A DNA stretch of 54,265 nucleotides, taken from NCBI GenBank assembly GCA_964486995.1, contig CAZAOV010000008.1, forward strand, positions 1 to 54,265, in the 5' to 3' direction. How positions within the stretch are numbered: position 1 is the first letter of the stretch; each line of letters starts with the position of its first letter. Shown here piece by piece: positions 11,295-33,793 of this stretch. The notes under the pieces are model-generated. The model searched no databases and was not told the origin of the DNA. It worked only from the letters and a program-made list of their open reading frames with translations. The position numbers were made by a program, and so were the translations under genes. Origin of the DNA: an uncultured Gammaproteobacteria bacterium. GTDB lineage: Bacteria; Patescibacteriota; Patescibacteriia; SG8-24.

Positions 11295-13435
<2,141 letters not shown>

Positions 13436-13448
13436 TTGGAAATTATTA

Positions 13449-14282
13449 TCACGGACAACTTACCGGTCTGCCCTTAACTAACGAGCATTCACTAAATAAT
13501 ACAAAATCAAATATCCCGGATAGCGGCGCCCCGCGAGGCATGGTCGCAATCAATCGTCGGCTTGAATTTGAGAATCGGCCCATGAAATCAATTACCACTT
13601 GTCCGGGCAGCGGCTGGGGATTGTTCGCCGCGTCATAAGCGCGTATCTCCACGTTCTCGAGCGGCTGATCTTTGGCGCGCAACCGCAACTTGTATAATGT
13701 ATTCGGAGTTAACGATAAATTTGCCGTACCGCCGACAAATTCAAACGTATTCTCGTACCGAGCCGAATCCTCTTCCCACACCACCTGACCACCATGAGCC
13801 CACTTTACAAGGTAAGCGCGCAAAACCGAACATCCGCCGCATAAATCCGACCAGGCAACCTCTATGCGAGTGATGTTGGATTGACCAAAGTCGGACGGCG
13901 CGTCCGGGTTGAATAAATTAACCTCCTCAAAGCCGTAGGAATCTATATCAGTGTAAACAATTTCCGTTGTTCCGGTGATATCACCCCACCACTTCGACTG
14001 ATTAGCCAGCAATCGAGCATCGTCCGCGTCATATGATGGCGGAATATTGCCGGTCTTGCGTGCGTTGTAGATTGCTTCCTCGACCCCGGATTCTGCCGCA
14101 TAGTAAGCCAAAACCGCACCATCGGAAATCCTCGTCTGCTGCAACATGTCCAATATAATCGTCCCCAAGCCAATGGAACCGATTACAACCGAGGACATTA
14201 TCAGAAGAGCGAAAAGCAGCACCGCACCAATTTGATTCGGCGTAGACTTGTGCTGACGTTTATGCCAATTTTTGTGCGTCAT
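13449..14282 (-). CDS. PilX-like minor pilin
   Basis: G|AVLLFALL hydrophobic helix without Glu5; AYYAAESGVEEA motif of PilX N-termini. Confidence 0.8.
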   Translation of the reverse strand: MTHKNWHKRQHKSTPNQIGAVLLFALLIMSSVVIGSIGLGTIILDMLQQTRISDGAVLAYYAAESGVEEAIYNARKTGNIPPSYDADDARLLANQSKWWGDITGTTEIVYTDIDSYGFEEVNLFNPDAPSDFGQSNITRIEVAWSDLCGGCSVLRAYLVKWAHGGQVVWEEDSARYENTFEFVGGTANLSLTPNTLYKLRLRAKDQPLENVEIRAYDAANNPQPLPGQVVIDFMGRFSNSSRRLIATMPRGAPLSGIFDFVLFSECSLVKGRPVSCP

Positions 14283-14284
14283 AT

Positions 14285-14923
14285 CTATCTAGCGTAGATC
14301 CTACTCGTGGCCGTGGTCTGTAAATCCAAATAAGTTCGCTCACCCGACTTTCGACCCACACTCTCCAGTGCCAACAAAATAGTTACCGACGGCTGTACGT
14401 CAGAACTATAGCCAGTTGTTGGATCGAAAGCCGTTGGATTCTCGTCGGGGCTGATGAAAAAATGGGCCGACTGCACTTTTACGCCGCGCGGACTTAACGG
14501 TGCCGGATCATACGAACCGACCTTTACTAGCAGGCAGGGACGGCTTTGCTCATCAAGACAGAACTGTTGATTGGTCTGGTCACTCTCAAAAAATCTAATT
14601 GGCATTTCCTCGCTATCTATGAGGGCCAACTCTCGCTCCTGCTGCTGAAGTCCGGGCTCCCGTTGGGCGTAATAATCATAATCAATCATGCCGGTACGTA
14701 TTTCGCGCACCATGGCCTCGATCGTAAAGCGCGAACTGGCTTGCATGGCCTGTAAATCAAAAATCTTCCGCTGACTGCGGCTGGCCATCATGAAAATGTC
14801 AGATGCGGTTACGATCAGCATCACGAAAACGGTAACGGCGACCAACATTTCCATTAGCGTAAATCCGTGCGCGCCGGAAGATGCGATTCGTCTTTTCTTA
14901 ATTGTATTTCCTATATTATTCAT
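14285..14923 (-). CDS. Minor pilin (PilW/PulJ-like)
   Basis: Class III signal G|FTLMEMLVAV; MVREIR; start overlaps the upstream stop. Confidence 0.88.
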   Translation of the reverse strand: MNNIGNTIKKRRIASSGAHGFTLMEMLVAVTVFVMLIVTASDIFMMASRSQRKIFDLQAMQASSRFTIEAMVREIRTGMIDYDYYAQREPGLQQQERELALIDSEEMPIRFFESDQTNQQFCLDEQSRPCLLVKVGSYDPAPLSPRGVKVQSAHFFISPDENPTAFDPTTGYSSDVQPSVTILLALESVGRKSGERTYLDLQTTATSRIYAR

Positions 14924-15579
14924 CGCCAATCAAACATTCTTTCAATGACGTGCACTTGATATTCCCCTCCGCCCGGGCGATCCCACCGCACATGCGAATT
15001 AACCTCGAAACCGACGTTTTCTGTTCCAGCGGGACACGGCTGTGAATCGCTGTACAGATTATAATCTATAAAGTTAGCTGTGCTTCCGGCTGGATTACTG
15101 CAAAGTTTTTTGAGATTGATGAGTCGCCGAAATCTCGTTGCCACGGTGCCGTCAGGCTGTACAGCGGCTTGACGATAAAGCCCAACAGGAGCGCCCCCTT
15201 CGATCACAGTTTGCTTATACACCCTCACTTTGTCCTCATCCCAATCTGTATCGCCAAAATCCAATTGCCAAATGCTGGTCTCGGGATCAAATGTAGGAAT
15301 ACTATTTAAAATATAGCCCGGACCGATAATATTCTCGTCATAATCCCGGCCAGCCAACCAATTAGAGTCTCGAATCTGACGCACCACTTCGATACTCTCA
15401 CGCGCCAAACTATAAGCCACGATCTGTTCCTCACTGGACTTAGCGCCATTAATTGAGCTTTGAACCAGCGTTAGCGCGGCGCTGACTGCAGTCACAATAA
15501 TACCCGAAGCCACGATGGCCTCGAGCATGCTTTGTCCGCCACTTCCTCGCAAATATCTATTGTGTCTGACTAACTTCAT
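14920..15579 (-). CDS. Minor pilin (PilV-like)
   Basis: G|QSMLEAIVA; LARESIEVVRQIRDSNW; C-terminal DWR. Confidence 0.85.
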   Translation of the reverse strand: MKLVRHNRYLRGSGGQSMLEAIVASGIIVTAVSAALTLVQSSINGAKSSEEQIVAYSLARESIEVVRQIRDSNWLAGRDYDENIIGPGYILNSIPTFDPETSIWQLDFGDTDWDEDKVRVYKQTVIEGGAPVGLYRQAAVQPDGTVATRFRRLINLKKLCSNPAGSTANFIDYNLYSDSQPCPAGTENVGFEVNSHVRWDRPGGGEYQVHVIERMFDWR

Positions 15580-16212
15580 TTAATCTACGCTGATTAACCC
15601 GGAAACGCGATTTATGGTAATGACTGCTATATCGTTGGTGTTGGCATGCTTTAACTCTACGGTCGCGATGCCATCGGCAATCGTACCGTTAAAACTCAAT
15701 ACTGGCTTAGGTGGAGTAAACACGATGTCCAGCTCGTTCACATCAGCTGGCGAAACACTAGCCAATTCGACAAACGGTCCTGGAGATATCGAATCAAACC
15801 GAAGCGCCTCGCCGTCATCGTAACGTTGGTTATCGTTGATATCCGCAAATATTCGTACTTCGCGGTTCAAACCAGAAGCCGCAGAAATATTAATTCCATA
15901 AGCCGGCGGAATCGCCGGTTCGCAAGTACCGCCATTGCAATCAGCATCTTCCCCTGATAGACACAATTTTCCTTCTTCGTTTCCTCCGTGACACATGTTG
16001 ACTTCGTATCCGGCAACGGTTTGCGTACGCGCTCGACGAATAAATGAAGCCACCTGTCTCGCACTTAGTCGCAATTCATCTCCCTGTTGACCAGCTCGGA
16101 AATTAGCCATAGCGAAAGCGGTGATTATGCCAAAAATAGACAATGAAATTAGCATTTCTACCATGGTAAAGCCGCGTCGCCTGTTTTCACTTGACCGATG
16201 AGAAAGCGACAT
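15580..16212 (-). CDS. Minor pilin (FimT/FimU/GspH-like) with small Cys-rich insert
   Basis: G|FTMVEMLISL; C-terminal ITINRVSGLI; insert CHGG...LC...DCNGGTC. Confidence 0.87.
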   Translation of the reverse strand: MSLSHRSSENRRRGFTMVEMLISLSIFGIITAFAMANFRAGQQGDELRLSARQVASFIRRARTQTVAGYEVNMCHGGNEEGKLCLSGEDADCNGGTCEPAIPPAYGINISAASGLNREVRIFADINDNQRYDDGEALRFDSISPGPFVELASVSPADVNELDIVFTPPKPVLSFNGTIADGIATVELKHANTNDIAVITINRVSGLISVD

Positions 16213-16213
16213 A

Positions 16214-16996
16214 TTACAGAAGGCCAAAATACCATTTAGTTATTTCACTGCCGTATAGCAAGACCATAACCGTTGCTGCCGCTAAAAAAGTCCCAAAAGG
16301 CAATTCGCTTTTCCAACCCTTTCGTCGCAGGCTCAACAGTAATATACCTATCACCGCACCAAAAATATAGGCTAAAAACATCGCCACTAGCACGTACGGA
16401 TAACCAAGCGCAGCCCCCATTAAGACACCGAGATGAACATCGCCGCCACCTATCCATTTTCCGTGCGATAAGACGCGCTGCAGCCAGAAAAAACCGGCAC
16501 AAACTAAGATGCCAAGCCCCAACCGCCAGAACTCAACTCCTAGCGCTAAGTTTGCGGCAAGAGCGATTGCAGCGGCCGGCAAAGTGACTGAACGCAGTAT
16601 CAGCATATATTTTAAATCAAACACGAAAACAACGGCCAAAATTGCAATCAAATACCAACTCAGAAGCAGGTTGGCCAGCGCCATCGCAGGAATTGCGGCT
16701 AAACCAGGCTCAAAAAATCTTAGTGCAGCTAGCAAAAACAAAATCCCGACCGTGAGTTCGACTATAAAATAGGATGGGTTAATTTTTTTGGCACAGTACC
16801 GACACTTACCGAGTAACGCTAAATAGCTCAACATGGGAATTAAATCCAGCGGCGATAAAATATGTCGGCAGTGCGGACAATAGGATCGCCCCGATACAAA
16901 ACTTTCCTTGGTTCGGAGTCGCCAAACAACGGCATTTAAAAAGCTGCCGACAACCGTTCCGAATACGAAAATGAAGACCTGAAGCATTATGGTCAT
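16214..16996 (-). CDS. pilD: Prepilin peptidase/N-methyltransferase (A24)
   Basis: GSFLN, RSYCPHC...GKCRYC, FDLKY, GGGDVHL, LPFGTFL; start uncertain among nearby Met codons. Confidence 0.95.
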   Translation of the reverse strand: MTIMLQVFIFVFGTVVGSFLNAVVWRLRTKESFVSGRSYCPHCRHILSPLDLIPMLSYLALLGKCRYCAKKINPSYFIVELTVGILFLLAALRFFEPGLAAIPAMALANLLLSWYLIAILAVVFVFDLKYMLILRSVTLPAAAIALAANLALGVEFWRLGLGILVCAGFFWLQRVLSHGKWIGGGDVHLGVLMGAALGYPYVLVAMFLAYIFGAVIGILLLSLRRKGWKSELPFGTFLAAATVMVLLYGSEITKWYFGLL

Positions 16997-17121
16997 ATAC
17001 ATCAATATAGCACGAATATGACATAGCGAGTAACTCATCACCCCACATAAATCCAGCCGATACGGTCGTAAAAAATTACAAGAAGTAGAAGGGCTTGAAA
17101 AAGCAAAAAACACGGAAATAA

Positions 17122-17156
17122 TAGCAAAGCATCCTGTGACTACAGGATGCTTTGCA
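17122..17156 (-). terminator. Strong hairpin after the major pilin gene (terminator or mRNA stabiliser)
   Basis: GCAAAGCATCCTGT-gact-ACAGGATGCTTTGC perfect 14-bp stem. Confidence 0.7.
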
Positions 17157-17225
17157 TTTTGCCGAATTCGGCTACGAATCTGCCCTGAGTGATTTTATGT
17201 CACTGCAGGACAAAAGCGAAGCTCT

Positions 17226-17690
17226 TTATTGAGTGATGCCGTTTGGATTGGCAGTCGCAGTACCCGACTCCAAATCACCAACAGATCCACCGAGACAGAA
17301 CTCCAATGTGTATGAAGTACCACTGCCGACCTGGGTATATGAGTAAGCGGCTTCAGCCTCTGTTCCGCAACCGTCTGTTGGCAGAGGGTTGGCTGGGACG
17401 AGACCCATGTAAGTTGTTCCGGTGGAACAGGACGTTGCCCATCCACTAGAACACAGAGCGGCACAGCTACCGGCACCCAAAACTGCACAGTCGCCCGGAT
17501 AGCCATTCTGATCTGCGAAGTACAGCTCGAGAGCGGTCTGAACCTGCTTTATGTCAGCGACACGCTTTGAGTCACGTGACTTCTGACGGGCGCTGTTTAA
17601 GGCGACCACAGCCAGAGTTGACAGCAGACCGATGATTGCGATAACCACCAGTAGCTCGATGAGAGTAAAACCCTTGTTAGATTTGCGCAT
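17226..17690 (-). CDS. Major type IV pilin (PilA/GspG-like)
   Basis: MRKSNKG|FTLIELLVVIAIIGLL; SRDSKRVADIKQVQTALELY; six Cys; strong RBS AAGGAGGT. Confidence 0.93.
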   Translation of the reverse strand: MRKSNKGFTLIELLVVIAIIGLLSTLAVVALNSARQKSRDSKRVADIKQVQTALELYFADQNGYPGDCAVLGAGSCAALCSSGWATSCSTGTTYMGLVPANPLPTDGCGTEAEAAYSYTQVGSGTSYTLEFCLGGSVGDLESGTATANPNGITQ

Positions 17691-17766
17691 ATTGCACCTC
17701 CTTTCATGGTTAGAATTTCCTCCAGACGTCTGGAGATAACGCGCAGTTAATCCACACGTTAAATTA

Positions 17767-17775
17767 ATTATACCA
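17767..17775 (-). promoter_or_regulatory. Extended -10 promoter (TGgTATAAT) for the major pilin
   Basis: TGTGGTATAAT about 77 nt upstream of the ATG; 16-bp palindrome CTCCAGACGTCTGGAG (17720-17735) in the leader. Confidence 0.6.
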
Positions 17776-17881
17776 CATTTAGCCTAGATAACATGATTCT
17801 ACGGTGTACAACCATGTCCAATTAGGGCTTGCAGTCTTCAATGTGCAACATCCATAATGTTACACGCTGAAGCTCAAAAAC

Positions 17882-19090
17882 CTAGAATTGGCTCGCCAAA
17901 CTATACATAGGCAGCATGATGGCCGCTACCATTATCCCAACTGCGGCCCCCATGATCATCATGATTAGTGGTTCTATTGCGTGCACCAGATTGGACACCA
18001 TGTTGGACAACTCACGCGAATAGAAGGCGGTCAAACGATCTAGTACCTCAGACAAACGACCAGTTTCTTCTCCGACAGATATCATCTGAGGCACCATTTT
18101 CGGCATGGATTTATCGCGTACGATTACGGTAGTCAAAGCGTTACCATCCGTTACTTCTTTCTTTGTCTCCAATAGCTGATGGCGGTAGTAGGCATTGCCT
18201 ACTACCTCTGCACAGATATCCAAACTGCTAGGAATATCCACGCCACCAGTCATCATAGTGCCAAAACTCTGCGTAAAGCGCACGACATAAATACGCTGAA
18301 GCAGTGGACCAAAAATTGGAATCTTGAGTTTGTATTTATCCCAAAGCATCCGTCCGGTATCAGTGCTTGTCCACCAACGGAACGCTATTAAGCCGATACC
18401 GGCTACAACGAGCATCTGAACCCAGTAGGCCTGAAAAAAGCCGCTCACCGCAATTAACAAATTTGTTGTCCAGGGGAGTTCAGCCCCTGATTGGGTCAAG
18501 GTTTCTGTGAGCTTTGGTACTACAAAAGTCATCATGATGAAACCGACGATAACCAAACCGACAATAACAAAAATGGGATAAATCATGGCGCCACGAATGC
18601 GCTGATTCAGGTCATAGTCCTTTTCCATTTGGTCTGCCAGATAATTCATCACGTCTTCCAGTTTGCCCGTTGTTTCGCCAGAGCGAATCATGTGAATAAA
18701 AAACTGCGAAAACGCCTTCGGGTATTGTTCCATGGCGTTCGACAACGCCGAACCAGCCTCAACATCATCAGCCACTTCTATGAGTATCTTTTGCAGTCGT
18801 GGATTGCGAGTCTGGTTTGCCACGGTCTGAATCGATTGAACCAGCGGCACAGAGGCTCCCATCAAGACCGAAAACTGACGTGAGAAAATAACGGTATCCT
18901 TAATTGGAATCTTATTCAGGAAAGGTAGTTCCAATTCCAGGATACTCGCCTTCTTGGCTGCCTCTAGCGAAACTACAAAAAATCCCCTGTCACGCAGGGT
19001 GTCCATGGCAATTTCTTGGTTTGGTGCTTCGATTACACCTGTAATCGCCTTACCCTCGGTGGTACGGACACGATAATCAAATCTCGGCAT
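17882..19090 (-). CDS. pilC: Type IV pilus platform protein (GspF/PilC)
   Basis: FSRQFSVL, GETTGKLE, AMIYP, VGEETG, IEPLIM, AIMLPMY. Confidence 0.95.
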   Translation of the reverse strand: MPRFDYRVRTTEGKAITGVIEAPNQEIAMDTLRDRGFFVVSLEAAKKASILELELPFLNKIPIKDTVIFSRQFSVLMGASVPLVQSIQTVANQTRNPRLQKILIEVADDVEAGSALSNAMEQYPKAFSQFFIHMIRSGETTGKLEDVMNYLADQMEKDYDLNQRIRGAMIYPIFVIVGLVIVGFIMMTFVVPKLTETLTQSGAELPWTTNLLIAVSGFFQAYWVQMLVVAGIGLIAFRWWTSTDTGRMLWDKYKLKIPIFGPLLQRIYVVRFTQSFGTMMTGGVDIPSSLDICAEVVGNAYYRHQLLETKKEVTDGNALTTVIVRDKSMPKMVPQMISVGEETGRLSEVLDRLTAFYSRELSNMVSNLVHAIEPLIMMIMGAAVGIMVAAIMLPMYSLASQF

Positions 19091-19135
19091 GGTTGTGATA
19101 GCAAGTGTTTATTCAGCGCGAACGCCGACCATATG

Positions 19136-19528
19136 CTATTTATCCATTTTAAGGACGCTCTTAATTTTATCGACCGCTTCAGCCGGCACAAAATGTGCTT
19201 TAATCAAATAATCCTCGGCGCCGTCCTGTAGCGCCTGCTCAATATCTTCTTTCTGACCTAAATTGGTCAGCATAATAACCGGAATATCCTTGGTGTTGAC
19301 GTCAACTTTAAGACGCTTGAGAGTTTCGAAGCCGTCGAGCTTGGGCATCAAGACATCCAAAAGGATTATTGCCGGCTTTTCTTCAGTCGCCTTTTTTAAA
19401 CCTTCTTCGCCATCCCGAGCGGTTAAAACCTGAAACCCCTCCAATTCAAGCTTGGTGGCATAAATACTGGAGAGAAACGAGTCATCGTCAACGATGAGAA
19501 CTTTAAATTTTCCGCCTTTATCAGTCAT
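19136..19528 (-). CDS. Single-domain response regulator (CheY/PilH-like)
   Basis: VLIVDDD, LLDVLMP, MLTN, YLIK receiver motifs; no output domain. Confidence 0.93.
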   Translation of the reverse strand: MTDKGGKFKVLIVDDDSFLSSIYATKLELEGFQVLTARDGEEGLKKATEEKPAIILLDVLMPKLDGFETLKRLKVDVNTKDIPVIMLTNLGQKEDIEQALQDGAEDYLIKAHFVPAEAVDKIKSVLKMDK

Positions 19529-19550
19529 ATGTTTTTTGGTAAGTAAGCGT

Positions 19551-21299
19551 CTATTCTGAAGTTATGCGCATAACCTCCTCAATTGTAGTGAAACCTTCAA
19601 GCGCTTTCAACAAGGCATCTTGCCTAATATTAATTAGTCGCTGTCCTTTGATGATTGCTCTCACCTTCTCTGCGTCAAAACCATTGGCAATCAAATCTCT
19701 CAGTTGGTCATTATACTCAATAACTTCGGCCACCGCTACACGCCCTACATATCCGGTATCCTGACAGCGAAGACAACCACGCCCCTTATAAAATACTGGC
19801 GGACCATCTTTTGACAGACCGACTTCCTCAAAATACTCATCGGGAATTTCCTGTATCTCTTTGCTCACCTGTTCTATCACATCTGGCGGAACTTCTACAG
19901 GCGCCTTGCAACGTTCGCATAATTTACGCGCCAAACGCTGGGCGATGGCTATGTTCATTGTTGCGCTCAACAAAAATGGCTCAAGATGCATGTCAACTAG
20001 GCGCGGCACTACACCCAGAGCATCATTGGTATGTAACGTTGAAAAAATTAAATGGCCAGTCAGTGCGGCATGCACCGCCAACTCACCCGTCTCACCATCA
20101 CGAATTTCGCCAACCATTATAATATTCGGGTCTTGTCTTAACAGGGCGCGCAACCCACTCGCAAACGTAAAGCCGACTTCTGGTCTAACCTGTGACTGAT
20201 TTACGCCCTTAATTTGATACTCAACCGGATCCTCCAACGTAGAGATATTTACCCCCTCTTCATTACGCATATTCAGAATGGTGAAGAGGGTGGTCGATTT
20301 ACCAGAACCGGTCGGACCGGTAATTAAAAACATTCCGTGTGGATGTCGAATCTGCTGCTCAATAATTTTTACATAGCGTGGCCTGAAACCAAGATGGGTT
20401 AACTTCGGTACGCCTTGATTGGTGTCCAAAATACGCATCACCACCTTCTCGGTTCCAGTCAGAGGCAGTGTCGATACACGAAAATCGATTACCTTATCGC
20501 CAATAGTATCACGAATGCGTCCGTCCTGCGGTATTCTAGTTTCATCCAGTTTCATGTCAGACAAGACTTTGATACGTGAAACTATGGAGGGGTGAATATA
20601 CTTTGGCAATGAAATTGAAGTTCTAAGTACTCCATCGACTCTATAGCGAACTCGAGATTCATCACCGTAAGGCTCAATATGAATATCCGATGCGCCACCC
20701 TCTACCGCATGCCTCAAAATAACCGACACTATTCGTGAAACCGGCGCCCCCTTGATTACCTCTTCTATTCGCTCCTCCTGCTGTAAGTCGGTTTTCTCTT
20801 CCGGGCCTTCGTACTTTTCCTTGGCTACCTCAAGCGCCACCGCAACCTCCTCGCCAATTTTTTTATAGAGTTTGTAAGCGCTGTTGAAAGATGCTTTTGA
20901 AATTATAAAATAGTGCGGCTTAAACTTTCTGGTTCGGGCCAAGAAATCAATCGCCTGCACGGCGCGCATGTCACGCGGATTAACCATGCCGATATTCACG
21001 CCGTCTCCGTCACGCTCAAAGGCGATGGCCTGATTGGTATCCGAAACTTCGCGCGGGATTAAATTCAACACTTCCAGCTCGATTTTTTTACCGACTAAAT
21101 CAAAATAGGGCACGCCCAAAATCGTTCCCCCGGCTTTCGTCAGCAACTCATCATCGATGATGTTCTTTTCTGCAATCAGCTCATCGTAAGGTCTGCCGCT
21201 TATCTTATGCTCTTCGACCAGCTCATTATGCTGACTTTCGTCAATCTTCCCCGCTTCGAGCAAGACATCTAATAATTGTGTGTCATTGCCACCAGACAT
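19551..21299 (-). CDS. pilB: Type IV pilus extension ATPase (GspE/PilB)
   Basis: ASDIHIEP, GPTGSGKST, LEDPVEY, LRQDP, GEIRD, TLHTN, Zn CERC/CLRC. Confidence 0.96.
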   Translation of the reverse strand: MSGGNDTQLLDVLLEAGKIDESQHNELVEEHKISGRPYDELIAEKNIIDDELLTKAGGTILGVPYFDLVGKKIELEVLNLIPREVSDTNQAIAFERDGDGVNIGMVNPRDMRAVQAIDFLARTRKFKPHYFIISKASFNSAYKLYKKIGEEVAVALEVAKEKYEGPEEKTDLQQEERIEEVIKGAPVSRIVSVILRHAVEGGASDIHIEPYGDESRVRYRVDGVLRTSISLPKYIHPSIVSRIKVLSDMKLDETRIPQDGRIRDTIGDKVIDFRVSTLPLTGTEKVVMRILDTNQGVPKLTHLGFRPRYVKIIEQQIRHPHGMFLITGPTGSGKSTTLFTILNMRNEEGVNISTLEDPVEYQIKGVNQSQVRPEVGFTFASGLRALLRQDPNIIMVGEIRDGETGELAVHAALTGHLIFSTLHTNDALGVVPRLVDMHLEPFLLSATMNIAIAQRLARKLCERCKAPVEVPPDVIEQVSKEIQEIPDEYFEEVGLSKDGPPVFYKGRGCLRCQDTGYVGRVAVAEVIEYNDQLRDLIANGFDAEKVRAIIKGQRLINIRQDALLKALEGFTTIEEVMRITSE

Positions 21300-21301
21300 A
21301 A

Positions 21302-21592
21302 TTATTGCTCCTCGTCACCCCCAGCGACTGAGGTAACAAAAGGTCTGTCGTTACCAAGCCCCATGGGTCTAACAGGCACAACACCATATTCTTTGAGTCC
21401 TTTATAATCTTCTCTCTTGAAGAGATTTTTGGCACCCTCTATGTCAATCTGGAGCTCAGCTTTCGGCAGATCGATATCAGATCCAAGTATGGCCCTTGGT
21501 TTTAGTTGATCATAATTAAAATAAACTATGACCCCGATAATGCCTACGATGAGCATGGCCAGAAATAAAATTTGTTGCTTTTCCTTTTCCAT
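21302..21592 (-). CDS. Small membrane protein at the PilP position of the pilus operon
   Basis: One TM plus C-terminal G..RPF motif; lies between pilO and pilB. Confidence 0.65.
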   Translation of the reverse strand: MEKEKQQILFLAMLIVGIIGVIVYFNYDQLKPRAILGSDIDLPKAELQIDIEGAKNLFKREDYKGLKEYGVVPVRPMGLGNDRPFVTSVAGGDEEQ

Positions 21593-21603
21593 ACTTTCAG
21601 ATA

Positions 21604-22230
21604 CTAAAAGGCGGGTTGGGGCGGGGGTTCGTTGGTGCCCCGTTTAACCCCCAAGTCATTCGTTATAAAATACGTAGTCAGCATGAGGCTATAGTTTCCA
21701 CTGCCCGCAGAAAACGCAATTGACTGCACGTCGGTAACACGGATCAGACTCTCAAGATCATTTAGAATCTTTAGGAATTCATCGTATGTACCACCAGAAA
21801 AATTCGCCGCCACATTAACCGGAGTAACTCCTTTTCCACCGATTCCGGCTGGATCAACAATCGTGTCGACCGATGAAAGCACCATGCCATTCGCTCTGGC
21901 CACTTCATCCAACTGCACAAACAAGCCTGGAACGTCCTCGCTCGGCGGAAGCATTAAATTAAGCTTATTCTTGTGCGCATCGTTAATCGCCCTATAGTCT
22001 GCTAGCGCATTTTCTAGACGAGCCATATAATTTTCGTCATCCTCGATGCGAGCTTCGAGTGGTTTGACGTCATACTCACCGCCAGTCATGAATTTACCCA
22101 CCTTGGGCATAAACAAAAGCAGGTAGGCCATGGCTGCATACGCCAAAATCAATGCAATCCCAATCAGGGGCATAAATTTCACAATCGGTGACTCTGGTTG
22201 TTTTTTCTTCTTATCAACCATATTATTCAT
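21604..22230 (-). CDS. pilO: PilO-like alignment protein
   Basis: TM, coiled coil, MLP..EDVPGLF, GGTYDEF...LE...R..DV; gene order. Confidence 0.82.
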   Translation of the reverse strand: MNNMVDKKKKQPESPIVKFMPLIGIALILAYAAMAYLLLFMPKVGKFMTGGEYDVKPLEARIEDDENYMARLENALADYRAINDAHKNKLNLMLPPSEDVPGLFVQLDEVARANGMVLSSVDTIVDPAGIGGKGVTPVNVAANFSGGTYDEFLKILNDLESLIRVTDVQSIAFSAGSGNYSLMLTTYFITNDLGVKRGTNEPPPQPAF

Positions 22231-22972
22231 CGTTTTCTTCAGTACCCGTTTCAGCTGGCATGACCCACATATAATCCTCTAGAGTTAAAACCAGGCTGAA
22301 CCCTACCCCATCAATCTCACCGAAGTCATTAAGGCGCGCTGCAGCAGATGTGGTAATCACGTTAGTGACCGCATCATCCTCCTGCCAAGCAACGATTTGC
22401 TCAGCCACATCTCGATAGCTATCGCCAGATGCATCAAGGGCAACGGTTCTGGAGGCAAAGTCACCAGCAAAACTGCTATATGTGACGGTTTTCTTGGTGC
22501 GACTACTCAAATGCTCAAAAAATTTAGTCCACCGCAAATGACCATCTAACAAATCCTCGGCATGCCGAGCCTTGGTGCCCAAAAGTGATACTCGTACGGC
22601 GTCCTCCTCTGCTTCAGCGATTGCCTGCTTCTTGCTTTCAATTATTTTTATGAGTTCAGCGCGACGATTCTGAAAATTTTGCTCCTGATTAACTAGATAC
22701 ACGTAGCCTCCACCAATCAATAAAGTCTCGACCAGCAAAGAGCCAAACAATATGATAAGCCATCTCCTCATCCCTCCACCATCTTCTTCATCACCGGCAG
22801 GCATCAATTGAACCTTCAGCCCGCTTCCGCTAAATCCATCCGAGATGTCATTGGCGGACGCGGATGAAGGTGGCGGAAGTGACGAAGCAGATGTATCAAA
22901 TGCAGAAGCAGGCACCGACGGCGCCTCTCTCTCATTTGCCCCTTGATTTTTCTGACCCGATAAACGGTTCAT
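22223..22972 (-). CDS. pilN: PilN-like alignment protein
   Basis: VQLMP before the TM, coiled coil, H.RWTKFF; between pilM and pilO. Confidence 0.75.
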   Translation of the reverse strand: MNRLSGQKNQGANEREAPSVPASAFDTSASSLPPPSSASANDISDGFSGSGLKVQLMPAGDEEDGGGMRRWLIILFGSLLVETLLIGGGYVYLVNQEQNFQNRRAELIKIIESKKQAIAEAEEDAVRVSLLGTKARHAEDLLDGHLRWTKFFEHLSSRTKKTVTYSSFAGDFASRTVALDASGDSYRDVAEQIVAWQEDDAVTNVITTSAAARLNDFGEIDGVGFSLVLTLEDYMWVMPAETGTEENDE

Positions 22973-23002
22973 AAATAAATATCTGCTAGGAGTCGGAGCA
23001 TT

Positions 23003-24106
23003 CTATTCTACGTTCTGCATGGCCAAGCCAATAGAAACGGCAAAACGCGGTCCAATCTCATCCAACACCGGTCGCAATCCATCGGGATAGGCCACCCGGG
23101 CCCACGGATCACCGACATAAGTCTTCATGTTTAGTTGCTCAGAGAAATAACTAGATAGTACCGGCAAACCGGAAGTGCCACCGGTTAAAATAATCTTCTC
23201 AACTTTTTTCTCGCTCCCGTCTTCATCGATCTGACCAGCGTATAAATTAACTGAATACTGCAGTTCCGTGACCATTGGTGCCATGGCAGATTCAAAAATC
23301 TTCGGCAAGCCTTCGCCAGGATAAATGCTCTGCACGCTCCTAATGTCACACTTCATCTCTTCAGCTTCCTTCAAGCCCAAGTCGAGCGCCTTGCCCATAG
23401 CCTTGGTTAAGGTGGTGCCACCCATATCCACACTACGCGTAACATACGGGATGCCGTTGTCAACGATGATGATATTAGTTCGCACACTGCCTATATCAAC
23501 TATCATTGTTGTTGATCTGTCTTTGCCAATAAGCGAACGAATCAACGCAAAAGTTTCAGTTTCCAGACTGGCCAACTCCAGACCGGCTTTACGAAATACG
23601 GTCATGTATTTCTGAATCATGGCATTTGCTGCTCCTGTAATCAGCACCTGAACGGTTTTCTTTTCAGCCTCCTTATCGGCCGCCTCATCTTTCTTTGTCT
23701 TTTTTTTCTTGTCATTTATGTCGATAATCTTAAAATCCAAAGTCATCTCTTCGAGCGGTACGGGGATAAGTTTTTTAGCCTGCCAACGAGCAGCTTCTCG
23801 AATATCATCCACTTTTTTGGTTTTTGGTACGGTCACTACCGAACTGAACACTGAAGCTACCGGCAAACCGCCGACCGCCTTCATCGTAGTGACTTTAGCT
23901 TTCTTAAGCATGTCGCGAAGGAGCTTGGCCGTACCGTTTATGTCATCCACCATATTTATCGGCTCGACTCCAGGCATACGCTCAGTAAATGAATACGTAA
24001 AAAGACGAAAACGCCCCTTCTCGTTCTTCAGTTCAACCAGTTTTATTCCTCCTGAACCGAAATCGATGCCAAGATAGCTCTGTTTCTTAGACCCGAATAG
24101 GCCCAT
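23003..24106 (-). CDS. pilM: Type IV pilus assembly actin-like protein
   Basis: LGIDFGSGGIKLVEL, IPVPLEE, VDIG, ILTGG, AVSIGLA. Confidence 0.95.
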   Translation of the reverse strand: MGLFGSKKQSYLGIDFGSGGIKLVELKNEKGRFRLFTYSFTERMPGVEPINMVDDINGTAKLLRDMLKKAKVTTMKAVGGLPVASVFSSVVTVPKTKKVDDIREAARWQAKKLIPVPLEEMTLDFKIIDINDKKKKTKKDEAADKEAEKKTVQVLITGAANAMIQKYMTVFRKAGLELASLETETFALIRSLIGKDRSTTMIVDIGSVRTNIIIVDNGIPYVTRSVDMGGTTLTKAMGKALDLGLKEAEEMKCDIRSVQSIYPGEGLPKIFESAMAPMVTELQYSVNLYAGQIDEDGSEKKVEKIILTGGTSGLPVLSSYFSEQLNMKTYVGDPWARVAYPDGLRPVLDEIGPRFAVSIGLAMQNVE

Positions 24107-24227: not shown

Positions 24228-27200
24228 CTATGGAGTATCGGTTATAGTGGGTAGTGACCTAGTAACGTCAGCGAAACCAGGTGGCGGATTAACCACGGCA
24301 CGGCCGTCATATATAAACTGTTCAGAACCTCTATCCACGTTGCGAAAAGCCCTTTCCAAAATCATTTTTCGACCGACAACCAAACCGTAAACCCGCAACG
24401 GAATCTCACTAATTTCGAGTGGTGGGGCAACCGTATCTAGACCGTCCTCACCAGCAATCAAGAAAGAGCCGACCACCTGCATAACGTTGCCATCTACGAT
24501 GACGTTTCCATAGTCCCCATTGTTATCGGGCAAAACTATCCATCCGAGTGACGCCAAGTTATTTAATCGGCTGACTGGCGCGTCTTCATATTGCAAATTG
24601 CCGACAATTTTTAGATTGCCGCCATCAATGATAACGGTTCCGTCTCCCCGTCCGTCAAATGTGCTGTTTCTAATTTCTCTGGCAGAAATCTCGATATCCT
24701 GACCACCAGCTTGCACGTAAATCACCTGACCTTCCAGTGGCTGCATCGGCAGAACATTATTCCAATAATGAACAAAAGACGCTTCGGTGTGGGTTTGAAC
24801 ATCGCCGTATTTTCCGTCAATCAATCCATTGATGTCCACCATGCCAAGAATGGTTGTATAGGCATTGTCTTCCTTTGGCCGTTCTAACTCGGTGTCAGAA
24901 TCTGTTTCTAGGCAAGGGTTGCCGTCAGCGCCCTCCATTTCGGTATTGAAATTCAGAATGCTACCCTTGGCGGTAACGCAATAGGTGGCGTTATAGCGAT
25001 CTTCTGGTGGTGGAACTGGTGCCATTATCTTCATTTCGGAAAACACGTTACTGGATTGTGTCTCGAGCCACGGGAAAACCAGCTGATCGCAAACGTTGGC
25101 GTCAATGCACGGCCCAATAGCCCCAGCGTCCATGCAATCAATATCTCTACGACAGGTTTGAGTCGGATCGTCTTGACAGACACCATCTCCAGAACCGCAA
25201 CTCCAGCTGCCATCATGAACCGTGCAGTCTTCATTTAGACGACAGCCAACCGGCGGATCTAACTTGTTACCGCTGGCATTGAGACACCAACCACAATCAG
25301 CATCGTTATTATCTAAGCGGCAAATATCAAAATCATGCAGGCATAGGCCCCAGTCCTGCACACACTCTTCCGGCTGCCCCGTACCGCCGTCGATGGGGCA
25401 GCATTTTAGGTCCGGGTCAATCTGCGGATTACAGTCGGCCGGGTCAAGACCAACTTCGCAAACTACATCGCGCGAAATTTGACAACGGCCGAATATGTCG
25501 TCCGGCTCGCACATCTCACCGACTCCGTTGGCGTTACGGTCGTTCTGTCCTGGGTTGTAATAATTCAAACAGTTATCGCACGGTTTATAGTCATTGGAAT
25601 AGACATTCTCAAACAGGGCGTCCGAAACGCCATCACCGTCAAAATCGGCCCATGAGCAAATATTTTCTACCTCAAAAAAATCCGGTTTAGAACTGCAGAC
25701 ATAAAATACTTGCCGATTAGAGAATACGGTATCGCCGTCATTATCTGTTGCTGAAACTTGAACAAAATACTCACCGTCACCCCACGCCGGAACGATACCG
25801 GTTAAATCAATAGTGTCACTGCAGTCGATATGGCTGGCGATTGTGTTATCGCCCAACATGGAAGTTGAAGGACCTACCGGGCCACCGATCAAGGTTCCGG
25901 CGGCGTTGTAAATCCATACGCCGCATGTCGCCAACGGAAACCAATCGCTGTTTGCCGACTGAAATCGCACTTCCAATTCCATGTTCATGCGATCGTCTTG
26001 GCGAAAATAGGGACTGTCCTTCCAGCCGCTCGGAATGCCAGCTGGGGCGATGGAAAGATTTGGGTCAATCATCTGCGGAGTCACGTTGACGTTAAACAAC
26101 GACATTGCGGAATAGTTTCCGACGTTATTGACTCCATCCTCACTTTTTCCGCGCACGTTTATGGTCGCATCATCCAAAAAGGCACCGGAAATAGGATCGG
26201 TAACACAAGTCCCGTCTGGTGTGCTATATTCGTCACCGTCAATCTCAATCGTACAGGAACAAATGTCACTGCTTCCGTTACCGAGATCCGGATCTTCAGC
26301 AATCATTCTAAATCTCCGAGCTTCGCCACGTTGCACAGTTATTGTGTTCGGCGGACCTTCTCCCTCGGCCTCGATTGAATTTACCAACGGCAAATCATCC
26401 TCGTACAGAATATTACTTATGATGATATCTCCACTTTCGGTTAATCCGGTGCCATCATGCTGAACTGAGATACTAATTGGATAGCTGCGCCACGTTTCGG
26501 GAGTGGCCGGTGTAGGGCAGGTAAACGTCAGGTCAAAACCATTCAAAACTTCACCAGCAATATTGAAAATATGAGCCACGCGAGTAGGAACCGCAACAAA
26601 ATCCAGCTTGCCCGAACCTGCCCCAGTGAGGGTGCAGTTCGGATTAACATCCGCATACGGATACACGGCATTATCATCGGTGTTATCACCAATCACAATA
26701 GCTATGGATGAATATGTACCGCTCCCCACCAGGCGAACCACGTCCTCTGAATTAACTCGCGAAGCCTCATAAGCCGCACCGGTTACGGTCGGATCGACTG
26801 ATGTGAAAGAGAAAAAAGAACTCAATCTAGGCACGGTTTGGCAGGGTACAGTGACCCATGGGGCAGCGCAATCAACACCGTTCCAACAATTTGAATCCAT
26901 ACAGTCCATAAACCCGTTGCCGTCATTATCAAATATGTCGGCGCATGACGCCTCTGATGACTCGCAAAAAACCGGCGCCAAATTAACCACTCCTCCACGT
27001 TTGGTGTCGCATTGATCGTCAGCGCAGTCAGTCAACGAATCAGCGTCGTTATCCCAATTGTCCGAACATAGGTCGTCATTGTTTTCGTCTGCGGCACATC
27101 GAGCAGCGTCATCTAAATACCCAAGACTCAAACGCGGACCTGGCCCGACGGTCAAACAGTCATCGATGTCCGCACAGTCGGTCAACCCGTCTCGATCGTG

Positions 27201-28601
27201 ATCAATCCCGTCCGCACAAGAATAATAGGTGATGTCCTCTCGTTCAGGACACGGGCCGCAGTTACCAAACTTGCGTTCGCAATCGGTGTCGGCACAATCG
27301 TATGGTGCATCAGCATCATCGTTGAAATTGTTGTTGCATAACATGTAGCGGTCGTCCAAATTAAATTCGAACTCGAAGCACATGTTCGGATTAACGCCAC
27401 CCTCATCCATGCCGATGCAGTCAGGGTCAGCGCAATCAACCAATCCGTCTAGGTCATCATCCACCCCGTTAAAGCACTGCAGGTCCGCATTCACACTAGA
27501 TGCGTCTCGATGTTCGACCGACGGGCAGGCAACATCACCCTGACAATCATAATCCATGCAATTGACGCCGGTGGTCGGCTCATCGTCCCAGTCGTGAGAC
27601 GGGCTGTATGACTGGTCTTCGTCGTCATCCACTCCGGTGGCGCAATCTTCAGTTGCCGGACAGCCGTACCCGGCATTCTTCCAGCAAGAACGCCCGACAA
27701 CCGTTTCCAGGTTATCCAAACAGTCGATTAGACCGTCTCCGTCATTATCAAAACCATCGGCGCAACCAGCCACACCAAACTCGTTTTCGTATTGACAGAT
27801 ACCGCCGCCGCCGGACAAGCTATTGCAATCTGGATCCAGACAATCTATTAGTCCATCCGCATCATTATCAAAACCGTGCTCGCATATTGTCTCTGATGAC
27901 TCACAATCGGCACCCAAAACCGCAACTTTTCCGACTGAACCGACGCAGGCGGAATCCTCGCAATCTGAATAGAAATTCAGGTCATTGTCGATGGCATCTG
28001 CGCATGGCTCATCCATATTTGGTATCGCCACCCACGACTCCGATTCATCATCATTGGATGGCGTTGCGGCGTCAACGTAGAACGATAGATTATTTTTTGT
28101 TCCTGATGCGCCATTATGAAACACGGCCAGATCAAATGTATATGAACCTGTAGCTAAGGCAGCGTACGTCACCGTCAATACCTGATCGACTATGCAGCCG
28201 GCACAACCATCACTATCATATCGTTCATATGCGGTCTGAGTGGGATTAATGTCTTCAAGAGGCAATACGACAGCGCCGTTGGCTGGATTGGCATACTTAT
28301 CAACGCTATCGAATGCGGGCAAATTGTGAATCATGTGTGATATCAACGTTCCGGTATTGTACACGCCGCCGTTCAAGCGGATTTTAAATGTGCCGTCGGG
28401 TCGAACGTGCTCAGTATAGGCGTACTGAACGGTCTGACCACCAACTATTATTTCTCCGGTGCAAATATTTCCATCACACGGGGCAGGAGAAACCGCTGCT
28501 TTTATCGAAACTGGTACCCAGGCAAACACAAAAACAAGCGCGAAACAAAATCCTGCTGAGGCGAGCAATAACGTATTTTTATTTATCGATATCCCACTCA
28601 T
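24228..28601 (-). CDS. Large secreted Cys/Asp-rich repeat protein (putative Ca2+-binding adhesin)
   Basis: Signal peptide; about 9 CxxxxDxDxDxxxDCxDxxC repeats; TSP3-like repeat; further Cys modules; C-terminal PWLET...YDGR...PPPGF domain. Confidence 0.85.
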   Translation of the reverse strand: MSGISINKNTLLLASAGFCFALVFVFAWVPVSIKAAVSPAPCDGNICTGEIIVGGQTVQYAYTEHVRPDGTFKIRLNGGVYNTGTLISHMIHNLPAFDSVDKYANPANGAVVLPLEDINPTQTAYERYDSDGCAGCIVDQVLTVTYAALATGSYTFDLAVFHNGASGTKNNLSFYVDAATPSNDDESESWVAIPNMDEPCADAIDNDLNFYSDCEDSACVGSVGKVAVLGADCESSETICEHGFDNDADGLIDCLDPDCNSLSGGGGICQYENEFGVAGCADGFDNDGDGLIDCLDNLETVVGRSCWKNAGYGCPATEDCATGVDDDEDQSYSPSHDWDDEPTTGVNCMDYDCQGDVACPSVEHRDASSVNADLQCFNGVDDDLDGLVDCADPDCIGMDEGGVNPNMCFEFEFNLDDRYMLCNNNFNDDADAPYDCADTDCERKFGNCGPCPEREDITYYSCADGIDHDRDGLTDCADIDDCLTVGPGPRLSLGYLDDAARCAADENNDDLCSDNWDNDADSLTDCADDQCDTKRGGVVNLAPVFCESSEASCADIFDNDGNGFMDCMDSNCWNGVDCAAPWVTVPCQTVPRLSSFFSFTSVDPTVTGAAYEASRVNSEDVVRLVGSGTYSSIAIVIGDNTDDNAVYPYADVNPNCTLTGAGSGKLDFVAVPTRVAHIFNIAGEVLNGFDLTFTCPTPATPETWRSYPISISVQHDGTGLTESGDIIISNILYEDDLPLVNSIEAEGEGPPNTITVQRGEARRFRMIAEDPDLGNGSSDICSCTIEIDGDEYSTPDGTCVTDPISGAFLDDATINVRGKSEDGVNNVGNYSAMSLFNVNVTPQMIDPNLSIAPAGIPSGWKDSPYFRQDDRMNMELEVRFQSANSDWFPLATCGVWIYNAAGTLIGGPVGPSTSMLGDNTIASHIDCSDTIDLTGIVPAWGDGEYFVQVSATDNDGDTVFSNRQVFYVCSSKPDFFEVENICSWADFDGDGVSDALFENVYSNDYKPCDNCLNYYNPGQNDRNANGVGEMCEPDDIFGRCQISRDVVCEVGLDPADCNPQIDPDLKCCPIDGGTGQPEECVQDWGLCLHDFDICRLDNNDADCGWCLNASGNKLDPPVGCRLNEDCTVHDGSWSCGSGDGVCQDDPTQTCRRDIDCMDAGAIGPCIDANVCDQLVFPWLETQSSNVFSEMKIMAPVPPPEDRYNATYCVTAKGSILNFNTEMEGADGNPCLETDSDTELERPKEDNAYTTILGMVDINGLIDGKYGDVQTHTEASFVHYWNNVLPMQPLEGQVIYVQAGGQDIEISAREIRNSTFDGRGDGTVIIDGGNLKIVGNLQYEDAPVSRLNNLASLGWIVLPDNNGDYGNVIVDGNVMQVVGSFLIAGEDGLDTVAPPLEISEIPLRVYGLVVGRKMILERAFRNVDRGSEQFIYDGRAVVNPPPGFADVTRSLPTITDTP

Positions 28602-30167
28602 CTATTGAACCGTTACATCATTATTTTCGTTGCAGCATAGGTCGCCGGATGAATAGCCGGGACTAAAACAATCATCGCTCGGGCTTTCATTATATCTAGT
28701 AGAGTTAGTGCAGTCGCAATCAAAGTAGCCGTCCTTAGGATCGCCATAGGTACACTCCAAGCCATTTACGACATTATGTATCGACTCACTCTCGCTACGC
28801 GGTTGTTTGCTGCAGCACAGCATGCCGGCTTCGTATCCGGTGTCGGTGCAATCCATTATGCCGTCACCGGTCGCACCCCAGATACATGATGTTCTGGGCA
28901 GAGTTTGACAGCGATAAGAAATACCCTGGCAATGACGATCGGCACAATCAATCTCACCGTTGCCGTCGTCATCGATTCCGTTGTGACAATCGCCTTCTAG
29001 CGGCACGCCGCGTCGCATCAGCAACGAAAATGATGCGTCTCCGGAAAAATCGCAATTAGCAGCATTATTGAAATAATTGCCCGGAAATCCGGAATGGCAT
29101 CGCAGGGCTTTATATTGATCCTCCTCGGAATCCAATCCAGACCATGTATTGTCATGAGTAAATATCGGCCACTTACGAATCTTTTCCCGTAGCTTGATGC
29201 GGCAGAATCCGGAAGTTTCGTCACAAAACTGAAATGCGTTGCAGTTTGCGTCTGATGCGCAGGCGGTCAAGGTCGGCGGACTGCCGATGCGACAGGAGTT
29301 TATTGTCCAGAGTTGCCCCGGCACTGTGGAATCGGAATTTTGCACGGTGTACTGCAGTGCTGCGGTGCCGTTACGAACGGCAGTTGGAATTATCGACTGC
29401 AAAATTTCAAACGTACCGTCCGACTTTTCCATCTCGCATTCAAGTAATGAATTTCCACTAGCAGAAAATTGGGTGAAGCCGATGTTCATTTGACTGAGAT
29501 GAGTTCCACGAAGTCCGGTGTTGTCCGGTTCATAAACACCCTCCGGACGGGCGATTTTTCCCAGTCGAGCAAGTACCCAAGTGGTGCGCACGGGACTAAA
29601 ATCAATCCAACCAGCACCGCGAACGTCATCGGTGCCGCCCCATGCCCAGTGGTCATTGAAATTCCCTTTTTCAAATTCCCCGGTAAGCGGATCAAGTACG
29701 GTGTGATAATTAGAAATCATGCATTCATTCAAATTCTCGCAATTGAGAGATATCCAACCATCGTCGCCCAGCGCATCAATTTTCGCCCAACCATACAGCT
29801 CATCAATCTTGCTGTTATATTCATCACGATATTGTGCGTATGGTGCACCGCCTTCTGGAGTGGTGCCGGAACAGGATTGACCAAAACAAATCCAGCCCAC
29901 GGTTTCGGACCAGGCCCAACCCATTAAGTGTGCCCAACCGATTTGCCCTTCGACATCCACAAAGGTGACACCGTAATCAACGGCGCCACAGGTTCCAGTG
30001 TTGACGCAATTCATGGAAATCCAACCAATAGAACCGGACCAAGCCCACTCAAAAACGTTCTCGGACAATCCGGCGTGTGCGGTGCGAGGCATGAATAACA
30101 AGAAAGACGCCGCTAGCATGGCGGCGGTGATAATAATTCGCAAATTTAACGGGCGTAGGGTTTCCAT
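28602..30167 (-). CDS. Secreted protein with WAW..GWI repeats and Cys-rich C-terminus
   Basis: Signal peptide ending AHA; 4 WAW/GWI repeats; CHNGIDDDGNGEIDCADRHC; stop abuts the next ATG (TAGATG). Confidence 0.85.
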   Translation of the reverse strand: METLRPLNLRIIITAAMLAASFLLFMPRTAHAGLSENVFEWAWSGSIGWISMNCVNTGTCGAVDYGVTFVDVEGQIGWAHLMGWAWSETVGWICFGQSCSGTTPEGGAPYAQYRDEYNSKIDELYGWAKIDALGDDGWISLNCENLNECMISNYHTVLDPLTGEFEKGNFNDHWAWGGTDDVRGAGWIDFSPVRTTWVLARLGKIARPEGVYEPDNTGLRGTHLSQMNIGFTQFSASGNSLLECEMEKSDGTFEILQSIIPTAVRNGTAALQYTVQNSDSTVPGQLWTINSCRIGSPPTLTACASDANCNAFQFCDETSGFCRIKLREKIRKWPIFTHDNTWSGLDSEEDQYKALRCHSGFPGNYFNNAANCDFSGDASFSLLMRRGVPLEGDCHNGIDDDGNGEIDCADRHCQGISYRCQTLPRTSCIWGATGDGIMDCTDTGYEAGMLCCSKQPRSESESIHNVVNGLECTYGDPKDGYFDCDCTNSTRYNESPSDDCFSPGYSSGDLCCNENNDVTVQ

Positions 30168-30286: not shown

Positions 30287-30386
30287 AAAAACCGTCTGAC
30301 TTGTTTTAAGGTGGAGGTAAAGCCTCTCCCCTAAAACAAGTCAGACAGTTTTTCGAGATGTTCCGCCTTAAAATAAGTCTGACGGT
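30287..30386. repeat. Three copies of a 25-29 bp unit, one inverted relative to the other two
   Basis: A 30287-30315; B 30325-30353 matches reverse complement of A at 25/29; C 30362-30386 matches at 22/25 (counted by eye). Confidence 0.85.
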
Positions 30387-31952: not shown

Positions 31953-32017
31953 ATTTTTTGCAGTTGTTGAGTGGGCACTTAAATAATCCTAAACAGCTCA
32001 ACAACTTTACAATTTAT

Positions 32018-33790: not shown

Positions 33791-33793
33791 AAA

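Follow-up and report, generated by a model that had tools for sequence, protein, structure and literature searches.

A split and expanded gene pair beside a Patescibacteria type IV pilus operon: a candidate two-subunit pilus adhesin

Two long genes lie directly upstream of a type IV pilus operon on the reverse strand of the 54,265-nucleotide stretch of DNA analyzed here (the window), contig CAZAOV010000008.1 of assembly GCA_964486995.1, from an uncultured bacterium placed by GTDB in the Patescibacteriota. The genes, P0002 (521 amino acid residues, 28602-30167(-)) and P0001 (1457 residues, 24228..28601(-)), are the sole long frames across 24228-30167 in the list of open reading frames (ORFs). 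At their junction (...CAA TAG ATG AGT...) the stop codon of the first abuts the start codon of the second (TAGATG), and 121 nt 3' of P0001, in the same orientation, begins pilM (23003-24106(-); PF11104, E 2.4e-37). The N-termini of P0001 and P0002 read as Sec-type signal peptides (...SIKA/AV; ...TAHA/GL). The pilin N_methyl motif (PF07963), present in the adjoining pilins, was absent from both proteins in the Pfam scan, as was any match to PilX_N, and we saw no type I secretion, sortase or autotransporter signals in either sequence. Frames, signal peptides and junction all agree with an earlier note, made from this DNA alone, which had described two coupled exported proteins upstream of and co-oriented with pilM. 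The remaining operon (13449..24106(-)), with genes called from Pfam, weak NCBIfam matches and inspection of the sequence, continues after pilM with PilN-like, PilO, a 96-aa ORF, PilB, a receiver-only response regulator, PilC, pilin and PilD. Three minor pilins (FimT/GspH-, PilV/GspI- and PilW/GspJ-like) and a 277-aa PilX/GspK-like protein come after PilD, followed by LigA; two homologs of the 277-aa protein carry the name PilX in their source records.

Full-length relatives of P0001 and P0002 were found in Patescibacteria only, and in three assemblies relatives of the two carry adjacent locus tags. Many matches to P0002 span only its first third and belong to proteins of 600-670 aa. P0072 (635 aa) opens with a signal peptide and a domain that shares 43% identity with P0002 residues 16-196, has a few acidic repeats in the middle, and closes with a domain that shares 36% identity with P0001 residues 1177-1456. 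We refer to these two shared parts as the GW barrel (N-terminal in P0002) and the C-domain (C-terminal in P0001). The window proteins were mapped by tblastn onto 79 related loci, found via GW-domain patterns, and the presence of a shared open frame was tested. The fused form, a single ORF of 517-809 aa with both GW barrel and C-domain, occurs at 47 of the 79 loci, and the split form, with proteins of 470-563 aa and 1315-1654 aa, at 22. The ten loci where no C-domain was seen comprise eight cut by contig ends, one with the barrel only and one on a 5-kb contig (with a 1249-aa ORF). A survey of pilM-linked loci for fused and split forms, which the earlier note had proposed, thus found both, and repeat number varies among them. 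At L070:4803-5567, a 254-aa ORF directly 5' of pilM holds the GW barrel without a C-domain; either this is a degenerate form or the barrel alone may have a role.

In the C-domain phylogeny (maximum likelihood), the split forms constitute one derived clade (support 100/99) nested within fused ones. Of its 59 rows, one is the window and 58 are loci; filtering had removed half of the split loci (11 of 22), and the single origin of the split therefore rests on 11 split loci and the window. One fused protein, P0069, falls inside the split clade: its barrel, 58% identical to that of P0002, is joined directly to a region resembling P0001 residues 1031-1453, which we read as a secondary deletion that would have restored the minimal form. 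In five more family members the GW repeats lead straight into the C-domain. Because barrel and C-domain adjoin directly in these five and in P0069, we take the two to be the core of the family and everything else to be passenger. On this comparison, the window pair is the split, expanded form of one gene. This relationship is what is new here; the repeat family of the acidic units, NCBIfam NF033662, is already known and curated. Since the two parts are fused in relatives, P0002 and P0001 very probably still act together, by the usual reasoning from gene fusions.

Linkage to the pilus genes is nearly constant. A C-domain ORF is present at 69 loci. Four of these stop at a contig edge; in each of the remaining 65, which are all the informative ones, pilM comes next in the 3' direction and in the same orientation, 2-376 nt away. 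RecJ and RNase H precede the gene in most loci, and PilN/O, PilB, the response regulator, PilC, pilin and PilD come after it. Because the 79 loci had been found via GW-domain patterns, linkage was retested with a C-domain profile over 301 genomes sampled across the phylum, and the flanks of 20 matches were examined. In 12 of these distant flanks pilM is directly 3', and five more hold other pilus genes (17/20 with type IV pilus genes in the flank); one has LigA alone, and two, both partial-profile matches, have nothing. The earlier note had named a lack of linkage to pil loci as an outcome that would speak against its proposal; homologs are clearly linked instead. The GW barrel was detected by HMM in eight of the 20 distant loci, in the same ORF in seven and in an adjacent ORF in one. 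At two loci (L105 and L119) the C-domain gene lies past the minor pilins, 5' of LigA rather than of pilM. In this one family of genomes, the C-domain protein at the far end of the pilus cluster is 518-540 aa long and has no GW barrel; at L105 its gene is ~5 kb 3' of the PilX-like gene, with three or four ORFs between.

In at least 17 further genomes, a C-domain match lies 73-957 nt 5' of a pilM match on the same strand (genome G154 was left out of this count and is included in both tallies over the 301 genomes). By profile, the C-domain family is present in 102 of the 301 sampled genomes, in 88 of the 254 of high quality and in 5 of the 16 from the class of the window, and PilM is present in 284 of the 301. 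A single-sequence survey that gave 16/301 understated the family and is superseded by the profile survey. All these counts are taken across related genomes and are not independent. An exhaustive HMMER search returned 576 representative clusters with the C-domain, 367 of them at E <= 1e-10; among the matches listed, the proteins are 130-2690 aa long and carry the domain at their C-terminus or close to it. When 40 C-domain proteins were scanned, 30 had no Pfam family and ten had Laminin_G_3, FG-GAP, PKD, fn3/Big, DUF2341 or CHB_HEX. At four loci (L106, L114, L116 and L117) the C-domain profile is broken by inserts of ~40 to 270 residues, and extra modules thus appear to be placed inside the predicted solenoid of this domain as well as before it. 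In the records of several contigs with the locus (L012, L014, L015, L018, L020, L060, L081 and others) the organism is given as Gammaproteobacteria, Binatia, Methylomirabilis, Vicinamibacterales or Chlamydiae; mislabelling or contamination of the bins is the probable cause, and we do not take these names as evidence of transfer. Our literature search turned up no description of the family or of its repeat. It is an undescribed family of Patescibacteria, almost always encoded beside pilus genes, and the C-domain is its defining module.

The small subunit P0002 consists of the signal peptide, the GW barrel, a sandwich domain resembling immunoglobulin (Ig) folds and carbohydrate-binding modules (CBM), and a Cys-rich C-terminal part with one acidic repeat. 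The GW barrel (residues 33-198, 29574..30071(-)) has its homolog at the N-terminus of the fused one-gene forms and is predicted to be a small closed barrel of four W.W...GW[IV] units. The four ...GW[IV] motifs are at residues 48, 91, 137 and 186, which locates the WAW/GWI repeats described previously. In the model (predicted local distance difference test score, pLDDT, 82.8; predicted template modelling score, pTM, 0.79) the domain resembles other small closed barrels, namely OprF-N, NspA and those of TbpB/hemophilin. The predicted Ig/CBM-like beta-sandwich follows (residues 199-342, 29142..29573(-)), and then the Cys-rich part (residues 343-521, 28605..29141(-)), which has many invariant cysteines and contains the acidic double-disulfide repeat matched by NF033662 (residues 393-416, 28920-28991(-)). 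Foldseek matches of the whole P0002 model to integrin headpieces and Ig/CBM domains had TM <= 0.16 and were not taken as homology.

The large subunit P0001 starts, after its signal peptide, with an N-terminal domain (residues 36-190, 28032..28496(-); conservation 0.49) kept in split forms only. Then comes an array of eight or more acidic double-disulfide repeats (residues 191-585, 26847..28031(-)), followed by three tandem Ig-like domains that would make a stalk (residues ~586-980, 25662..26846(-)). The structure model, which spans residues 590-1457 (pLDDT 78.6), is confident in these Ig-like domains (model residues 1-390, pLDDT ~85-95). Foldseek matched them to the stalks of giant adhesins: SiiE (2yn5, E 3.4e-8), PrgB (8beg), the extender of the Marinomonas ice-binding adhesin (5irb), Antigen I/II (3qe5) and InvD (5ldy). 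Like those of SiiE, PrgB, MpIBP, Antigen I/II and InvD, the P0001 stalk is built of tandem beta-sandwich domains (Foldseek E ~1e-7 to 1e-8); unlike them, it has only three and gives no significant Pfam Big match (best E 0.17). Across P0001 and P0002, Pfam gave nothing at E <= 0.01, the best matches being Y_Y_Y and Big_3_4 at E 0.07-0.17. Cysteines account for 75 of the 1457 residues of P0001 and 28 of the 521 of P0002, and net charge, tallied over five regions of P0001, comes to -12, -84 (the repeat array), -37, -28 and -23 (the C-domain), -184 in sum; the median charge of the C-domain family is -2. Cysteine counts, charges, adhesin-type stalk matches and the passenger modules of relatives bear out the description of the pair as disulfide- and acid-rich with adhesin-like parts.

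Between stalk and C-domain lies a stretch assigned by sequence, similar to thrombospondin type 3 (TSP3) repeats and carrying small Cys-knot modules (residues ~981-1170, 25092..25661(-)). It is the most variable region of the protein (conservation 0.33, gap fraction 0.22; pLDDT 36-80). Of the TSP3-like repeat claimed for it, the CDNC...YNPGQNDRNANGVGEMC letters can be seen at residue ~1008, but Pfam does not support the assignment, TSP_3 (PF02412) having no match at E <= 10 in P0001 or P0002, and the model there is of low confidence. A distant relative of P0002, P0099, does match TSP_3 (E 6.4e-6).

The acidic repeats of P0001 match NF033662 at 125 bits (E 6.3e-37; curated cut-off 41 bits) in eight stretches, and P0002 has a single unit (30.7 bits, E 1.9e-7), under the whole-protein cut-off. 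About nine units had been counted in P0001 by eye; eight are supported by the HMM, with degenerate ones besides, and a strict regular expression finds six there and one in P0002, where the single unit stands as described. The NF033662 scan of the source genome found the eight places in P0001, the one in P0002 and one on a different contig, a third gene with one such repeat (C6:24063-24128(-), in a 605-aa open frame; E 3.4e-5). By regular expression, 27 of 28 split large subunits have 5-7 repeats and fused forms 0-4; the count is zero in 110 of 144 representatives, and the repeats are thus optional in the family. The likeness to animal teneurins named in the earlier note is real but short: in a phmmer search of PDB sequences, P0001 residues 235-259 align with the C-rich chain of teneurin-4 (7PLP_A, E 0.002) over 25 residues only. 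According to PMC9058538, this teneurin-4 domain binds three Ca2+, two of them in the thrombospondin-type-3-like mode, and has six cysteines paired 1-3, 2-5 and 4-6. P0001 shares with the teneurin C-rich domain, TSP3 and NF033662 the C....DNDxDGxxDCxDxDC unit. It differs from teneurin in having tandem arrays of a four-Cys unit instead of one six-Cys domain and in its context, a bacterial pilus operon, and its Ca2+ site is predicted from the motif; it differs from TSP type 3 in lacking a Pfam TSP_3 match.

The C-domain (residues 1171-1457, 24231..25091(-)) ends in ...YDGRAVVNPPPGF..SLP. The YDGR...PPPGF domain named earlier can be recognized here, the YDGR...NPPPGF tail being the most conserved motif of the 288-aa C-domain. 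The domain is modelled confidently as a beta-solenoid with one flanking helix, and the model has the features that define the ice-binding IBP-1 fold, a right-handed triangular beta-solenoid with a flanking alpha-helix. Its closest structural match is the tip pilin domain of ComZ, which ties in Z score with ice-binding proteins. Sequence searches gave little: DUF3494 (ice-binding) had no Pfam match at E <= 10 in P0001 or in 33 C-domains, and the C-domain profile found nothing significant among PDB sequences (top hit a phage gp5 beta-helix stretch, E 2.9). Pfam on the 33 C-domains gave DUF7305 in four (best E 5.8e-4, sub-threshold) and pAdhesive_15 in one (E 0.11). The closest ESM Atlas clusters are unnamed Patescibacteria proteins (0.94-0.95); pAdhesive_15, DUF7305 and DUF4900 were rejected as named leads, reaching only 0.84-0.85 there, DUF7305 had no match in the source genome, and a literature search on these names turned up nothing of use. 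At the level of sequence, the C-domain is an orphan.

Upstream of P0002 (30168..30360(-)), a near-perfect long inverted repeat, aaaactgtctgacttgtttta ... taaaacaagtcagacggtttt (30290-30355(-)), forms a terminator-like hairpin between a 164-aa ORF and a TATAAT box, the latter ~10 nt 5' of the P0002 ATG and downstream of the hairpin. The inverted repeat could end transcription of the gene upstream or serve a regulatory function. With the hairpin and TATAAT so near the start codon, P0002 is the probable start of the operon. The 164-aa ORF has no Pfam family and no tblastn match among the 79 related loci. Within the operon, the receiver-only response regulator (19136-19528(-), PF00072, E 3.9e-25) sits between pilB and pilC and has a counterpart in many related loci (29-84% identity, tblastn); its recurrence suggests a conserved built-in pilus switch. 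The 96-aa ORF between pilO and pilB (21302-21592(-)) belongs to no family and has counterparts of 31-44% identity at L009, L012, L014, L017 and L020; it may be a genuine small component of the pilus machine. The FimT/GspH-like minor pilin (15580-16227(-)) carries a small Cys-rich insert, CHGGNEEGKLCLSGEDADCNGGTCEP; this module, noticed earlier, is visible in the sequence and had no NF033662 match in the genome scan. RecJ and RNase H (31548-33859) on the 5' side and LigA (11295-13367) on the 3' side flank the pilus cluster in many Patescibacteria lineages, an unusually stable neighbourhood.

The source genome (1.49 Mb, 92.4% complete) encodes four PilB-like ATPases on four contigs and, for this reason, probably runs several type IV filament systems, of which only that of the window has the GW/C pair; GW barrel and C-domain are each single-copy in the genome. 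PilT and ComEC are also encoded, grouped with one PilB paralog on contig C7 (the PilB survey names C1, C4 and C7). A search for sequencing runs listed three DNA entries, all from one study, and none of RNA. There are three DsbA-like genes; a search of the genome for VKOR found none, so the check for DsbA/VKOR suggested earlier has a positive answer for the former only. No match to PilY1 (PF05567) at E <= 1 exists in P0001, P0002 or the genome at this completeness, which extends the absence of a recognizable PilY1 from the window to the genome.

ComZ of Thermus thermophilus (PDB 6QVI) is, according to PMC6561018, a GspK-like pilin with an inserted solenoid, for which the authors argue a position at the tip and which binds the minor pilin PilA2 and DNA. 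The window C-domain as modelled shares its ice-binding-type beta-solenoid, without detectable sequence similarity. In ComZ, however, the solenoid is set in the pilin's own sheet, whereas in the window it closes the chain of a Sec-exported non-pilin, and a gene of its own (277 aa) encodes the PilX/GspK-like pilin. ComZ has loops where the window solenoid keeps a flanking helix as in ice-binding proteins, and the window solenoid is strongly acidic, its charge of -23 arguing against DNA binding. PilY1/PilC of Pseudomonas, Neisseria and Myxococcus, described here from established knowledge and PMC11623550, resembles the window family as a large Sec-exported non-pilin encoded in a pilus operon, with a conserved C-terminal domain, a variable adhesive N-terminal part and Ca-binding motifs (predicted from sequence in the window proteins), and the family lies, like PilY1/PilC, at the minor-pilin end of the cluster in some lineages. 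It differs in lacking PF05567 in both proteins and the genome, in having a solenoid instead of a seven-bladed propeller, in usually lying 5' of pilM and not after pilX, and, here, in having two subunits. The term "PilY1-replacing" therefore survives as an analogy only: there is no PilY1 domain, and the conserved fold is a predicted beta-solenoid and not a propeller. Adhesive modules (lectin-like, propeller) grafted onto the pilus are described, in PMC11623550, for PilB/PilC of S. sanguinis and PilX1/PilX2 of Saccharibacteria. Relatives of the window proteins likewise carry Laminin_G_3 and FG-GAP modules, but those modular minor pilins are true pilins with class III signal peptides, whereas the window family has Sec-type signals and no N_methyl.

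On balance, we lean towards the view that P0002 and P0001 are the paired subunits of a single exported adhesin that is not a pilin and is dedicated to the downstream type IV pilus. Several points favour it: the link to the pilus holds between deeply diverged lineages, the tail is conserved and heads of adhesion type are exchanged freely, export is via Sec, and the predicted fold of the tail is one that otherwise occurs in a protein of the pilus tip; moreover, the stalk is of adhesin type, PilY1 was not found and PilT is present. With its tail predicted to fold like a known pilus-tip protein domain and with its pilus linkage, the C-domain protein is probably the sticky part of the pilus.

On this view, the ancestral form was a single protein of 520-810 aa with a signal peptide, a GW barrel, an optional passenger and a C-terminal beta-solenoid. 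In the lineage of the window, the gene split between barrel and passenger and the passenger grew: the small subunit gained the Ig/CBM-like domain and Cys-rich module, and the large subunit the N-domain, eight or more teneurin-type repeats (probably rigid when Ca-loaded, to judge by their motif), three Ig-like stalk domains and Cys knots. Both chains would exit via Sec and be oxidized outside the cell, where the three DsbA-like genes could supply disulfides, and would then re-associate, solenoid with barrel presumably linking the complex to the pilus. Its most likely position would be the tip, on the PilX/GspK-like minor-pilin cap, as an in trans version of the one-chain architecture of Thermus ComZ; docking on this cap is put forward tentatively, by analogy. 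The long acidic passenger would point outward and might bind a target surface, and PilT-driven retraction could then draw cell and target together.

An alternative that keeps the pilus link and that we regard as unlikely places the complex off the filament. Solenoid and barrel would anchor it in the envelope at the pilus exit, as a collar, conduit or S-layer/wall adhesin, and the pilus would draw a partner near for the co-regulated, envelope-bound adhesin to lock. The Sec signal peptides without a pilin N-terminus would suit this arrangement, as would the position of the gene, mostly directly 5' of the envelope alignment genes pilMNO and often by 2-7 nt, the modelled likeness of the GW domain to OprF-N, NspA and TbpB/hemophilin barrels, and the monoderm-type cells, in which some exit structure is conceivable without a secretin. 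A structural collar, however, would not be expected to vary as greatly as the passenger does (lectin-like, FG-GAP, PKD, Ca repeats) or to be missing, as the family is, from two thirds of the sampled PilM-bearing genomes; moreover, the gene is at the minor-pilin end of the cluster in some lineages (L105, L119), and the top structural match is a tip pilin domain.

That same match, ComZ, binds DNA, and ComEC and PilT are encoded in the genome, which raises the idea of a ComZ-like DNA receptor whose solenoid would bind extracellular DNA and pass it to ComEC, for transformation or for nucleotide scavenging in an organism of reduced biosynthesis. We consider this improbable. Every domain is acidic (-184 over the tallied P0001 regions, -23 for the solenoid against a family median of -2), and the adhesin-type stalk and the lectin-like passengers of relatives suit surfaces better than DNA. 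Among the four PilB-like ATPases, one paralog stands elsewhere together with PilT and ComEC, and this separate contig implies that another filament may serve uptake. Least probable of all, and very unlikely in our judgement, is a general surface, matrix or ice-binding-type protein that is merely co-transcribed with the pilus and has no mechanistic tie to it. The tie in Z score with ice-binding proteins fits it, and, as stated in PMC4736985, these bacteria commonly have large extracellular proteins rich in cysteine, for which a general role in attachment has been proposed. Yet linkage is too constant for hitch-hiking (65/65 informative loci, 17/20 distant matches) and holds when the gene relocates to the opposite end of the cluster, the genome has only one copy of the gene, next to one of its four filament systems, and there is no Pfam DUF3494 match at E <= 10.

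A pilus-dedicated two-subunit adhesin would bear on the one surface machine that nearly all ultrasmall Patescibacteria keep, the type IV pilus (PilM in 284/301). In the few cultivated Patescibacteria species, type IV pili mediate attachment to the host (PMC11623550). The family is a sequence-defined candidate for what the pili of uncultivated Patescibacteria grip with, in about one third of the sampled genomes. Its conserved docking end and swappable business end mean that host-range determinants could be read from metagenomes, and the series of split and fused forms, with a natural re-fused minimal form, maps core against cargo parts. More doubtfully, Patescibacteria may arm type IV pili by a third route, in addition to propeller proteins of the PilY1 type and modular pilins: a ComZ-like solenoid and Trp-rich GW barrel delivered in trans via Sec to a PilX/GspK-like cap, with swappable passengers, and here split and given a stalk of teneurin-type Ca repeats. 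If that is true, the family would be the main determinant of host or surface recognition in many episymbiotic ultrasmall bacteria, and the repeat would be a bacterial counterpart of the C-rich domain of animal teneurins.

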